Positions 8,535-49,755 of a stretch of DNA of 64,000 nt are shown here, piece by piece. Under the pieces are notes generated by a model. The model saw only the letters and a list, made by a program, of their open reading frames with translations, was not told the DNA's origin and made no database searches. This DNA is from Heterodontus francisci. Its lineage: Eukaryota. The translations under genes were made by a program, and so were the position numbers. The first letter of the stretch is position 1. Each line of letters starts with the position of its first letter. The stretch is taken from the NCBI RefSeq assembly GCF_036365525.1, contig NC_090414.1, positions 20,545,846 through 20,609,845 on the forward strand, written 5' to 3'.

Positions 8535-8602
8535 TGAGTAGAACTCCCTCTACACTGTCCCCATCAAACACTCCCAGGACAGGTACAGCACGGGGTTAGA
8601 TA
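8535..8602 (+). repeat. 70-bp minisatellite, array A, left part (Tx1 target)
   Basis: ctccctctacactgtccccatcaaacactcccaggacaggtacagcacggggttagata lies directly 5' of copy E1. Confidence 0.9.
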
Positions 8603-10269
8603 TCCTGCCGGAGGAGATGACACCTTTTGCGTGGAGCACCACGCACCTCCTCTATCTGGGAGTCCACCTTAGCCCCGCTGAGGAAGCCTGGCCGGCAAAC
8701 TGGCAGGAGTTGGAGGCGAAAGTCACCGCTCGGCTGGGGCGCTGGACAGGACTGCTCCGAGTGCTTTCTTACAGGGGCCGAGCGTTGGTCATAAACCAAC
8801 TGGTGGCCTCCATGCTGTGGTACCGGTTGGTCACTTTGGCCCGGCCCCCTGAATTTGCCACCAAGATCCAGAAGAAACTCGTCGATTTCTTCTGGGGCAA
8901 GAGGAAACACTGGGTCTCTGCCGCGGTCCTGAGTCTCCCGATCGAGGAGGGCGGTCAGTCGCTGGTGTGCGTCCGCACCCAGGCTGCGACTCTCCGCCTT
9001 CGGACCCTGCAGAGATACCTGTACGTCGAGCGTCCTCCCAGATGGTGTGCGCTGGCGACGTATTTTTTCCGCCAGTGTCACTGCCTTCAAGACGACACGC
9101 AGCTCCCGGTGGAGTCCGTTAGCCGCGCCTCTCTGAGGGAGTTGCCTGTCTTTTACCGGGATCTTTTCCGAGTCTGGAACATGGTCGCCTCCAGTCAGGG
9201 CGCTCCCCCGCCGGCGGAGGAGAGAGCCTCGGCTGTCCGGGCGGCCGACTCCGGGGACGGTCCGGCGGGCGGAGGAGTAGCCGAAACCCCCGGGACGCCC
9301 CTCACTGCGGGTGGCGAGGGGGCTCGGGAGTGCGGAGCGATCCCGGCCGAGCTGACCCCCGCTCGGCCGGAACTGCTCATCGGACCCAGGCCCCGAAACC
9401 CTCCTCGGGAGCCGGTCCCGCACAACCCGAGCCGCCTCTCGGAAATGCCCTCCGTGCCATTCCAATCGGCGCGGAGGGGTTTCCTGTACGGGCTGCTCCT
9501 GCACACTCTCCACTTCCTCGCCCTCGTCAGCCGGCCGGACACACCCTGGCGGTCCGCGTTGCCATCTGGCGGCGAGGGGAAACCCCGATGGAGGTCTCTC
9601 TACGCGGGAGTCTTCCCCCTTTACATCGGGGACCTGGGGTGGAGGGTGCTGCACAGAGCAGTCCCGTGCAATAGGCTTTTAAGTAGGTTCACGGACTCCC
9701 AGGCCACCTGTACTTTCTGCGGCCTGGACAAGTCCGTGTTCCACGTTTATACGGAGTGTGCGAGGTTGCAGCCCCTATTTGAGTATCTGAAGGGGCTGCT
9801 CCTCAAATTCTGGCTGCACTTCAGTCCCACGCTCCTGATCTTTGGGCACCCGGTGCGGAGGGGCTTGGGCCGGGAGGAGGATCTCCCCGTCGGTCTGCTC
9901 CTGGGCCTGGCCAAGGTGGCAATTCACAGGTCCAGGTTACGGGCTGTCGGGGGGTCCGTCCTCCCCGATTGCCTGCCCCTCTTCCGCGGTTACGTTCGCG
10001 CCCGGGTGTCCCTGGAAAAGGAGCATGCGGTGTCCGCCGGTACGCTTGAGGCCTTCCGCGACCGGTGGGCACCGCAGGGACTGGAGTGCATTGTCGACGC
10101 CGAGAATGGCATTTTAATTTGAGTTTTTTGTTTATTTATCTGGTTTTAATAAAGTTATTTTAAAACTGTAAATATGTATATAAAGGGGGCCTGAGGAATA
10201 AAGGCCCCCTCGACGTGAAAAATATAAAAGGGGCCTGGGGTATAAAGGTCACCTTATATAAAAAAAAAA
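8603..10269 (+). mobile_element. Tx1-clade non-LTR retrotransposon, copy E1 (5'-truncated) with a 12-13-bp TSD
   Basis: C-terminal third of ORF2 is open (8617-10122) with the CTFC..H...C zinc finger, followed by 3' UTR and poly(A). cggggttagata is duplicated at 8591-8602 and 10270-10281. Confidence 0.93.
8617..10122 (+). pseudogene. Tx1 ORF2 C-terminal fragment (RT thumb region to zinc finger)
   Basis: YLGV, LSYRGRALVINQL, W..HRAVPCN and CTFCG..H...EC motifs; nearly identical to the ORF2 C-termini at 24658-26165 and 41640-43135. Confidence 0.9.
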
Positions 10270-46300: not shown

Positions 46301-49300
46301 CTAGTGGGGTGGCTATCTTGTTGGCCCCGACTTTTCAGCCGGAGATCTTGGGGGTCAAGGAGCTAGTGCCGGGCTGCTTGCTCCACCTCGCCGTTCGCCT
46401 GGGTAGCGTGCCGCTCCACTTTGTGATCGTGTACGCGCCCAGACCCGGCACGTTGCAAGCGCGCTTCTTTGAAGAAGCGTCCGCTCTCTTGAGCTCCATC
46501 GATAGCGGCGAGTGCATCATCCTCGGGGGGGATTTTAACTGCACCCTCGAGGTGGGGGATCGCTCCAGTCCCCAGCGCGGCCAAGCGTTGGTGGAGAAGT
46601 TGAGGGAACTGATCAGCTCCCTTAACTTGGTGGACATCTGGTGGAATCTCCATCCCGACTCCAGCACCTTCACGTGGAGGTCTGGGGGAAGAGGGTCCCA
46701 AATCGACCACCTCTAATTTTCGCAGGCGTACGTCTCCCGCGTCTCGGCGGCCTCCATGCGGCTGGTGCCGTGCTCGGACCACCGCCTGGTGTGGGCGGAG
46801 TCCACTCCGCGCTGCACGCGGGCAGGGTCCGCGTACTAGCACTTCAACAACCGGCTGCTGGAGGACGTGCGATTCTGGGCTGACTGGAGAAGGAAGCAGG
46901 TGGGGGCTTCCCCTCCTTGAGGCTATGGTGGGATGTGGGCAAGACTCACGTGTCTTCTGTCAGGAGTATGCGAAGGGGTCGACCAAGAGGCGGGAAGCCG
47001 AGATCGGGCGCCTTGAGAGGGAGGTGCTCGACTTGGAGTCCCGCCTCGGTCATGCCGTCGTGGACCCGGCCCTGTGGCAGGCGTACAAAGAGAAGAAGGG
47101 CGCGCTGAGGGACCTGAGCTCATAGGGTCCCGAGGAGCGTACGTGAGGTCGCGGATCCAGATCCTGGAAGATTTGGACCGCACCTCACCCTTCTTCTGCT
47201 CGCTGCAATAAATGGCGGGGGGTCCGTAAGCAGCTCGTTGAGCTGCTGGCCGACGACGGATCCTCCATCACGGATCCGGAGGGAATGGGCCTCCTGGTCT
47301 GTACTTATTACAGTGCGTTGTTCTCTCCGGATCCGTCCAGCGAGGATGCGCGCAGAGTTTTGTGGGAGGACCTGCCGCAGGTCAGCCCGGAGGGCGCCGA
47401 AGGATTGGAGGCTCCGCTCACGTTGGCGGAGCTGACTGGCGCCCTCCACCAGCTCTCGAGGGGCAAATCCCCAGGGCTGGATGGGTTGACCGTGGAGTTC
47501 CTCAGGGCGTTCTGGGACGTCCTGGGGGACGATTACGCGCGGGTCCTGGGGGAAAGCCTGGCGACCGGGGAGATGCCCCTCTCGTGGCGCAGGGCGGTCA
47601 TCGTCCTGCTGCCAAAGAGGGGCGATCTCCGCCTGCTTAAAAACTGGCGTCCGGTCTCCCTCCTCAGCACGGATTATAAGATCTTTGCCCGGGCTATGTC
47701 TACCCGCCTGGGCTCCGTGCTGGCCCACATGATCCACCCCGACCAGTCCTACACGGTCCCGGGCCAGTCCATCCAGGACAACATCCACCTGGTCCAGGAC
47801 CTGATCCATCTTTCCCAGAGGACTGGTCAGTCGGTCGCCTTTCTCTCCCTCGATCAGGAGAAGGCGTTCAACAGGGTGGATCACGAATACCTTTTCGGGA
47901 CTCTGTGCGTTTTCGGACTAGGGCCGCATATCGTGTCCCAGGTCCGACTTTTATACGCCGCCGCAGAGTGTCTAGTCAAAGTTAACGGGTCCTTGACGGC
48001 GCCCCTTCGATTTGGGAGAGGAGTCAGGGATGCCCATGTCCGGCCAATCATATACCATCTGCGTGGAGCCCTTCCTGTGCCTGCTTCGCAGGAGGTTGAC
48101 GGGATTGGCTCTGCGCGAGCCGGCCATGCGGGTCGTCCTCTCGGCTTACGCCGATGACGTGCTCCTTGCGGGCACAGATTCCGTTGACTTGCGGAGGATG
48201 CGCGACTGCCAGCAGACCTTTTCTGCCGTGTCCTCCGCGAGGATCAATTGGGAGAAATGTTCCGGACTCCTGGTGGGTCAGTGGCGGGTGGACTCCCTGC
48301 CGGAGGAGATGACACCTTTTACGTGGAGCACCACGCACCTCCTCTATCTGGGAGTCCATCTTCACCTCGCTGAGGAAGCCTGGCCGGCAAACTGACAGGA
48401 GTTGGAGGCGAAAGTCACTGCTCGGCTAGGGCGCTGGACAGGACTGCTCCGAGTGCTTTCCTACAGGGGCCGAGCGCTGGTCGTAAACCAACTGGTGGCC
48501 TCCATGCTGTGGTATCGGTTGGTCACTTTGGCCCCACCCCCTGTATTTGCCACCAAGATCCAGAAGAAACTCGTCGATTTCTTCTGGGGCAAGAGGAAAC
48601 ACTGGGTCTCTGCCGCGGTCCTGAGTCTCCCAATCGAGGAGGGTGGCCAGTCGCTGGTGTGCATCCGCACCCAGGATGTGACCCTCCGCCTTCGGACCCT
48701 GCAGAGATACCAGTACGTCGAGCGTCCTCCCAGATGGTGTGCGCTGGCGACATATTTTTTCCGCCAGTGTCACTGCCTTCGAGACGACACGCAGCTCCCG
48801 GTGGAGTCCATTAGCCGCGCCTCTCTGAGGGAGTTGCCTGTCTTTTACCGGGATCTTTTCCGAGTCTGGAACATGGTCGCCTCCAGTCAGGGCGCTCCCC
48901 TGCCGCAAGAGGAGAGCGCTTCGGCTGTCTGGGCGGCCGACTCCGGGGAAAGACCGACGGGTGGAGGAGTAGCCGAAACCCCCCGGGACGCCCCTCACTG
49001 CGGGTGGCGAGGGGCCTCGGGAGTGCGGAGCAATCCCGGCCGAGCTGACCCCTGCTCGACCGAAACTGCTTATCGGACCCAGGCCCCAAAACCCTCTTTA
49101 GGAGCTGGTCCCGCAAACCCGAGCCGCCTCTCGGAAATGCCCTCCGTGCCATTCCAATTGGCGTGGAGGGGTTTCCTGTACGGGCTACTCCTGCACACTC
49201 TCCACTTCCTCACCCTCGTCAGCCGGCCGGACACGCCCTGGGTGGCGAGGGGAAACCCTGATAGAGGTCTCTCTACGCGGGAGTCTTCCCCCTTCACATC

Positions 49301-49755
49301 GGGGACTTGGGGTGGAGGGTGCTGCACAGGGCAGTCCCGTGCAATAGGCTTTTAAGTAGGTTCACGGACTCCCAGGCCGCCTGTACTTTCTGCGGCCTGG
49401 ACGAGTCCGTGTTCCATGTATATAGGGAGTGTGCGAGGTTGCAGCCCCTCTTTGAGTATTTGAAGGGGCTGCTCCTCAAATTCTGGCTGCACTTCAGTCC
49501 CACGCTCCTGATCTTTGGGCACCCGGTGCGGAGGGGCTTGAGCCGGGAGGAGGATCTCCTCGTCGGTCTGCTCCTGGGCCTGGCCAAGGTGGCAATTCAC
49601 AGGTCAAGGCTGCGGGTCGTCGGGGGGGTCCGTCCTCCCCGATTGCCTGCCCCTCTTCCGCGGTTACGTTCGCGCCCGGGTGTCCCTGGAGACGGAACAT
49701 GGGGTGTCCGCCGGTACGCTTGAGGCCTTCCGCGACCGGTGGGCACCGCAGGGAC
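43344..49755 (+). mobile_element. Older, decayed Tx1 copy E5 (lacks 3' UTR and poly(A)), tandem to E4
   Basis: 5' UTR related to E4; ORF1 start ATG->ACG near 44054; ORF2 from 46105 with several stops and frameshifts; ends abruptly at gggcaccgcagggac. Confidence 0.93.

Follow-up and report, generated by a model that had tools for sequence, protein, structure and literature searches.

Known Tx1 elements and the shark family

Tx1L of Xenopus laevis (UniRef YTX2_X...) is a retrotransposon that carries an APE endonuclease, a reverse transcriptase (RT), and a zinc finger, and inserts sequence-specifically into a repeated sequence (PMC1950540, PMC4494074; all papers are cited here from excerpts). 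A hairpin loop of its endonuclease contributes to target choice (PMC1950540). Here, we describe a family with the same layout from the shark Heterodontus francisci, which prefers a single position within a dispersed 70-bp minisatellite. It was examined genome-wide and in a window, by which we mean the whole stretch of 64,000 nucleotides analysed (assembly GCF_036365525.1, contig NC_090414.1, positions 20,545,846 to 20,609,845, forward strand); the copies in the window are called E1 to E5. Two differences should be kept in mind. The Tx1L target lies inside the DNA transposon Tx1D, whereas the shark target is a free minisatellite, 22 loci of which share no transposon flanks, and whose arrays free at both ends show random end phases. 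The endonuclease loop has 11 residues in Tx1L (YVRVRDGHVSQ), but is short and glycine-rich in the shark family (WRSGGGG, 7 residues), and it is also short in a skate homologue.

Target-preferring Tx1 families, tandem stacking, and trans-mobilised RNAs were described by Kojima in 2015, and satellites are among the known Tx1 targets according to the legend of Fig. 3 of that paper (PMC4494074). The crocodilian Tx1-Mar/SINEU pair, Keno, Kibi, Koshi, and the families with a 'Sat' target resemble the shark family in preference rather than strictness, in stacking around a duplication, and in the mobilisation of other RNAs to the target; the targets of Tx1-Mar, Keno, Kibi, and Koshi are Mariner-N4, U2, and microsatellites, rather than a 70-bp minisatellite (PMC4494074). 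The main text of that paper, as excerpted, does not contain the word 'shark', and carriage of a target to new sites was not found described in it. Read-through RNA is retrotransposed in L1, R1Bm, and R7Ag, and accurate priming by R1Bm needs downstream target sequence (PMC7265360). These elements belong to other clades, and what they transduce is ribosomal DNA or unique flank, whereas in 16 of the 28 proven off-target insertions of the shark family the transduced sequence is a tandem repeat with the target in it.

A literature search found no description of this family or its repeat, and the supplements of PMC4494074 may name a satellite-targeting family; judged against the literature rather than Repbase or Dfam, the target is probably undescribed. 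Taken together, the sequences argue for a real, active, target-preferring Tx1 family with unusually frequent carriage of its target.

Identity and activity of the family

Open reading frame (ORF) 2 contains the Pfam domains Exo_endo_phos (APE) and RVT_1 (RT). The zf-RVT match is weak and comes from E5; a C-x2-C..H..C motif aligns with Tx1L. The CCHC knuckle of ORF1 is visible in translation, though weak in Pfam (E 0.013), and with a poly(A) tail, 5' truncation, and target-site duplication it completes the Tx1 hallmarks. The intact ORF2 of L130, a copy outside the window, shares 50% identity with Xenopus Tx1L ORF2 along the full length. In an RT tree of 26 rows chosen from the homologue listing, with no named L1, Keno, Kibi, or Koshi rows among them, the family falls into a 7-row group with Xenopus Tx1L and with sturgeon and turtle elements (support 100/99). 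The nearest named relatives among the matches listed are from shark (92% over 44% of the query) and skate (73% over 26%). The initial annotation had assigned the copies to Tx1 from the APE-RT-zinc finger order of ORF2 and the CCHC ORF1, and on both the domains and the RT grouping they classify as Tx1-clade long interspersed nuclear elements (LINEs). The 3' untranslated region (UTR) has two predicted hairpins (z -2.8).

Five copies (L081, L130, L185, L193, and L197) have intact ORF1 and ORF2 of 682-694 and 1252 codons, stop to stop, and are mutually about 99% alike, as expected of a young and recently active family. Recent activity, which had been read from near-identical ORF2 copies in the window, thus holds genome-wide, but the window copies themselves are only 92-98% alike over the 3' part of ORF2, and E3, E4, and E5 are all broken. 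One need not rebuild an active consensus from E1, E3, and E4, as had been proposed, when natural copies with both frames open exist.

The 5' UTR occurs in unrelated-looking variants (L078, L081, L130, and L071), with ORF1 about 86% and ORF2 95-99% alike among them, and E3 and E4 differ likewise; diverged ORF1 and variant 5' UTRs on a near-identical ORF2 suggest swapping of promoter and ORF1. In the Tx1L group of the tree, the branching order of shark, sturgeon, frog, and turtles follows host phylogeny (midpoint root, few rows), which suggests vertical descent since early jawed vertebrates. A skate entry named 'zinc finger protein 830' holds Tx1 ORF1 and endonuclease sequence and is probably an annotation fusion.

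Insertion at one position of the repeat

The target position is TACAGC^ACGGGGTTAGATA, used in a single orientation, and both position and orientation, first proposed from the window, hold genome-wide. Exact matching found 16,223 35-mers of the repeat and 1,679 23-mers of the element 3' end, along with 1,392 junctions of A9 with the target and 677 of the repeat with an element head. Among the full-length heads of one 5' variant, 299 of 425 directly follow an exact TACAGCANN. Of the other 126, the first 20 listed were fetched (these include two duplicate pairs, L203/L204 and L205/L206); 13 follow an in-register variant of the repeat and 7 follow the poly(A) of another copy. Among the 30 best-scoring 3' ends, which include E4 and the duplicate pairs L022/L023 and L030/L031, 29 run into the repeat or a 12-base piece of it, and where the 5' end is visible the repeat stands on both sides in 8 of 9.

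Truncated copies deserve particular attention. They cannot bring upstream sequence with them, so repeat on both sides of such a copy shows targeting. E1, L013, L024, L032, L035, L036, L039, L040, L060, and L128 are in this state, with CGGGGTTAGAT(A) duplicated. The duplication at the target is about 10-15 bp for truncated copies and 0-5 bp for full-length ones. Targeting of TACAGC^ACGGGGTTAGATA is real.

One might suspect instead that the repeat is the element's own 3' tail or terminal repeat, in which case no targeting is needed. Transduced repeat is indeed common, and about 55 of 75 sampled 3' ends run into repeat or an element head. This reading is refuted by the 5'-truncated copies with upstream repeat and a duplicated site; in addition, the upstream units differ from one local array to the next, elements are absent from many arrays, and a host retrocopy uses the site. 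We give it almost no credence.

It is just as hard to credit that a few ancestral insertions gave rise to the bulk of the association through segmental duplication. Four duplicate pairs (L022/L023, L030/L031, L203/L204, and L205/L206) do point that way. For the bulk of the copies, however, it is refuted: the sampled loci differ from one another in where the element is truncated, in the shape of the poly(A), in the 5' UTR variant, and in their flanks, and the copies in the window have no unique flank in common and are therefore independent insertions. The initial annotation had named segmental duplication as an outcome that would undo its reading.

Of the repeat loci along contig C1, 34 were taken in order of position; script flags mark an element in 19 of them, and several others contain a bare A-run or other cargo. 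On-target copies are concentrated towards contig ends.

Insertions outside the repeat

A sample of 75 loci was taken from the first 89 listed 3' ends, on contigs C1-C3, skipping near neighbours and the last few. On-target copies number 23, with 4 more likely on target. Transductions were proven in 16 cases and probable in 3; off-target insertions without repeat were proven in 12 and probable in 2. Five loci have neither repeat nor duplication, and 10 have 3' repeat but a 5' end that could not be placed. Inside the repeat-rich clusters of C1-C3, 27 of 38 copies are on or probably on target, and outside them 0 of 37. The on-target share is probably higher genome-wide, because C1-C3 hold only 89 of the 1,679 ends. 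The flank criterion of Kojima 2015 asks for more than 20% of one kind; here, at least 23 of 75 copies are flanked on both sides by the repeat, quite apart from the 299 heads counted above.

A proven duplication in non-repeat DNA accompanies 28 of the 75 sampled 3' ends. The family is therefore target-preferring, and strict R2-like site specificity is excluded. The initial annotation took the element to be strictly site-specific and the repeat to be its passive safe harbour, and part of that picture stands: every resolved full-length head lies at the site, 29 of the 30 best-scoring 3' ends continue into repeat, and the preference is genuine. As a strict rule it is refuted by the 28 duplications and by the absence of on-target copies outside the clusters, and we consider it very improbable.

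The 28 proven off-target copies measure only 34-1243 bases, and no full-length copy was seen off target. Their duplications are mostly 13-15 bp (mode 14 bp) and start with an A. When the sites are aligned on that first A (n = 28), the logo shows C at -1 in 25 (background 0.41, p 1e-7) and C at -4 in 18 (p 2e-6), followed by T at -6 in 15 (p 0.003), A at -3 in 14 (p 0.011), and G at -2 in 10 (p 0.11). The off-target consensus is thus TNCAGC^A and agrees with the upstream side of the target, TACAGC^A.

By arithmetic, about 3 million instances of a motif with six fixed bases are expected in 6 Gb. That is too many for the motif to account for the preference by itself, and what favours the repeat in addition may be longer protein contacts, pairing of a read-through tail, chromatin, or selection. 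One proposal is that the endonuclease reads only TNCAGC^A, with the excess in the repeat due to a chromatin or region preference and to selection against long copies elsewhere. It would account for off-target sites that match just the upstream half of the target, for on-target copies clustered near contig ends, and for 28 short copies out of 28 off target. Yet some 3 million motif sites compete with tens of thousands of repeat units, and still at least 23 of 75 insertions lie in the repeat. The on-target set also includes short truncated copies and bare A-runs, which offer little to select on, and an element sits in 19 of the 34 ordered repeat loci. We regard this proposal as unlikely, though less so than strict specificity.

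Carriage of the repeat by read-through

At 16 loci, a truncated element with its poly(A) is followed by repeat from CGGGG and then by a second poly(A), and this whole stretch lies between the two copies of the duplication, with unique flank ahead of it. The repeat is thus carried inside the duplication in 16 of the 28 proven off-target insertions, ranging from 5 bases (L190) to about 4 units or 290 bases. Since the repeat is inside the copied RNA, the masters would be on-target copies read through into their own array. Repeat delivered into unrelated DNA in this way also means that repeat after a poly(A) is no proof of targeting. We therefore caution against the 3' flank logo that had been proposed as a test: it would have counted these 16 transductions as targeting, and such logos overcount wherever read-through is frequent.

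Only two of the 16 transductions carry whole target junctions: L118, with about 4 units and the duplication AAAGGCTAGAAAAT, and L102, with 3.5 units and the duplication AATGGCCTTCTTAC. Short carried pieces (poly(A)-CGGGGTTAG) were also considered as targets and dropped. Since repeated insertion at the upstream site, which stays intact, accounts for the stacks, a carried piece counts as a seed only if it spans a whole junction. Misplaced copies are likely to plant some new landing sites. At L098, around 6880-7200, a very short copy with carried repeat has what looks like a duplication of about 95 bases on either side.

Cargo and stacking at the target

The target base is not reserved for the element. 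Locus L169 holds an intronless, open RPS26 reading frame that ends in poly(A)-CAGGGTTAGATAC inside a repeat array, so a host RPS26 retrocopy occupies the element's target base. By script classes, the 44 poly(A)-target junctions in 34 loci comprise 10 after an element, 27 after repeat (13 of which form one amplified stack, L067), and 7 after other sequence. Non-element sequences of 80-390 bases lie between repeat pieces at L178, L069, L160, and L175, with poly(A) ends at the target site, and are probably 3' ends of host mRNAs.

Every insertion leaves an unbroken TACAGCA on its upstream side, where element copies, bare A-runs, and copies of host mRNAs line up head to tail. Later events can stack at this preserved site, so no second target has to be assumed to explain the head-to-tail copies or the alternation of A-runs with scraps of the target. 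In L067 (1500-2396), a poly(A) and a 35-base repeat piece recur in about 13 tandem copies, a new compound repeat born from an insertion scar.

Proposed mechanism and its weak points

Our preferred reading, to which we give a probability of roughly 0.8, is that a young Tx1-clade LINE prefers one position of a pre-existing, dispersed 70-bp minisatellite, probably through a bottom-strand nick at TNCAGC^A plus extra contacts, and that read-through transcripts take repeat sequence to unrelated sites. The nick would leave a 3' T able to pair with the poly(A), and a top-strand cut about 14 bp downstream would follow, then target-primed reverse transcription. For a sequence preference of the endonuclease, the off-target logo speaks indirectly. 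Further contacts would favour the full repeat over the bare motif, and later insertions would enter upstream of earlier ones. Transcription may pass the weak poly(A) signal of an on-target master into the flanking array, and the complete junctions transduced could serve as new targets. The element head (CTGGGATTGG or CGGGGTTGG) resembles the target CGGGGTTAG and may help 5' joining on target, which would explain why no full-length copy lies off target.

Several points weigh against this reading and should be read alongside it. When the off-target sites were first aligned, on the end of the A-run, the logo showed no excess overall (p 0.17); the signal appeared only on re-alignment to the first A, chosen after seeing the data, and the downstream half of the target is unmatched at off-target sites in either alignment. 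The 75 loci were sorted by hand and come from C1-C3 alone, with chromosome interiors over-represented. The lack of full-length off-target copies could be due to selection. No case of a seeded array later hit by a new insertion appeared among the fetched loci. The runs of five organisms contain the repeat as well as related ORF2 ends, but the divergence of the 3' UTR is too great there, and the junction is not spanned by any contig.

The repeat also has a life of its own. Across all fetched loci, a sample biased towards elements, 46 of 182 repeat segments are free at both ends and end in random phases, and at these 46 arrays neither poly(A) nor duplication above shuffled sequence was found. At least nine organisms hold the repeat at 0.7 or more of its words. 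Free arrays without marks of retroposition, together with this distribution, indicate that the repeat predates the element and mostly spreads without it.

Other origins for the repeat were set aside. That empty arrays are orphan transductions does not fit the lack of poly(A) or duplication in the 46 arrays, and that the repeat belongs to a short interspersed nuclear element (SINE) or a DNA transposon does not fit 22 loci with no common flanks beyond the element and common repeats. Against Rfam, the repeat gave no match at gathering score in the window and chance-level matches around the array, with no tRNA-specific scan included. Its reverse strand may resemble part of LF-SINE.

The element copies in the window

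All five element regions and two arrays in the window are on the forward strand, as is every repeat match, and each match touches an element. That last point had been noticed before, and it is true of the window but not of the genome, where many arrays are empty.

E1 (8604..10269) is a 5'-truncated, on-target copy comprising the 3' part of ORF2, a 3' UTR with two hairpins, and poly(A). A partial repeat (8544..8603) precedes it, ending in the duplicated target CGGGGTTAGATA, and an array of 8.0 units (10270..10827) follows; the target-site duplication of 12-13 bp reads CGGGGTTAGATA at 8591-8602 and 10270-10281. E1 is 98.8-98.9% identical to intact copies elsewhere in the genome.

E2 (11461..12607) is a stack in which a 187-bp 3' fragment with poly(A) (11461-11649) is followed by a head at 11650, the start of ORF1, and then a jump to the 3' end and poly(A). 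A 25-base repeat piece (12608..12632) lies 3' of it, and the 5' side has neither repeat nor duplication; either a target or a carried piece fits.

E3 (19758..26298) is a full-length, frameshifted copy on target, with ORF1 at 20397-22417 and ORF2 from 22429 to about 26130. It follows an array of 7.2 units (19247..19757) that contains a bare A12 at the target position (19677..19688), which we read as a poly(A)-only insertion, and it is followed by a 40-base repeat piece (26299..26338).

E4 (36754..43277) is full-length, broken, and on target, with stops in ORF1 (37478 to about 39400) and a frameshift in ORF2 (39423-43135); 1.6 units precede it (36644..36753). On its 3' side lie a 27-base repeat piece, 18 bases, and a second poly(A) (43278..43342). 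The 18 bases (43305-43322) may be carried flank or the 3' end of another RNA. E5 (43343..49755), an older copy 92-93% identical to the others, is stacked behind this poly(A) and has lost its 3' end at 49755. Head-to-tail stacking is thus seen at 11650 and 43343, and E1, E3, and E4 have the repeat in register on both sides.

The junctions listed in the initial annotation are all in the sequence: poly(A) then CGGGG(G)TTAGATACAGAGTAAAG at 10270, 12608, 26299, and 43278, the 5' junctions at 19758 and 36754, and the 12-bp CGGGGTTAGATA duplication of E1. The four copies that it took to be on target are independent, as claimed, but with repeat on the 3' side only, E2 is not shown to be one of them. 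Insertion into a host-gene intron is established for E3 only.

Neighbouring genes and other repeats

A nuclear-receptor gene that we take to be ERR-like occupies 16300-33404 (+), with P-box CEACKA and RGGRQKYK and exons near 16300-16413, 16650-16770, 17050-17150, 26700-26960, and 33140-33404. E3 lies in one of its introns on the same strand, between the DNA-binding exons (near 16300-17150) and the ligand-binding exon near 26700. Another of its introns holds a 4.3-kb array (26992-31355) of about 120 copies of a GA-rich 35-37 bp unit. Head to head with this gene is a TGF-beta family gene (1-6200, -) with propeptide and mature-domain exons, and E1 and E2 lie between the two. A 33-bp minisatellite (962-1549, 17.8 copies) has a unit similar to dispersed repeats at 1518-1701, 14640-14859, 35610-35807, and 58591-58845, which are probably SINE-derived.

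What the family offers

Target-specific Tx1 elements are known, but to our knowledge almost none come with intact, recently active copies in a single assembly that also records on- and off-target events by the thousand. From this genome sequence one can gauge what the endonuclease prefers, how long the duplications are, and how often read-through occurs, and several of the natural intact copies are suited to assay.

A bolder extension, possible but doubtful, is a self-feeding and partly RNA-aimed system. Most template RNAs would end in the target repeat, and their tails would pair with the nicked strand and supply the specificity that the short-loop endonuclease lacks; misplaced copies would plant complete targets, and element and minisatellite would spread each other across shark chromosomes. 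If this were true, and cargo choice were loose, an intact copy would be a precise, re-aimable gene writer for vertebrates. Two questions could be put to this family: by what means an APE element becomes more specific than its nuclease motif alone would make it, and whether retrotransposons are able to seed targets for themselves.

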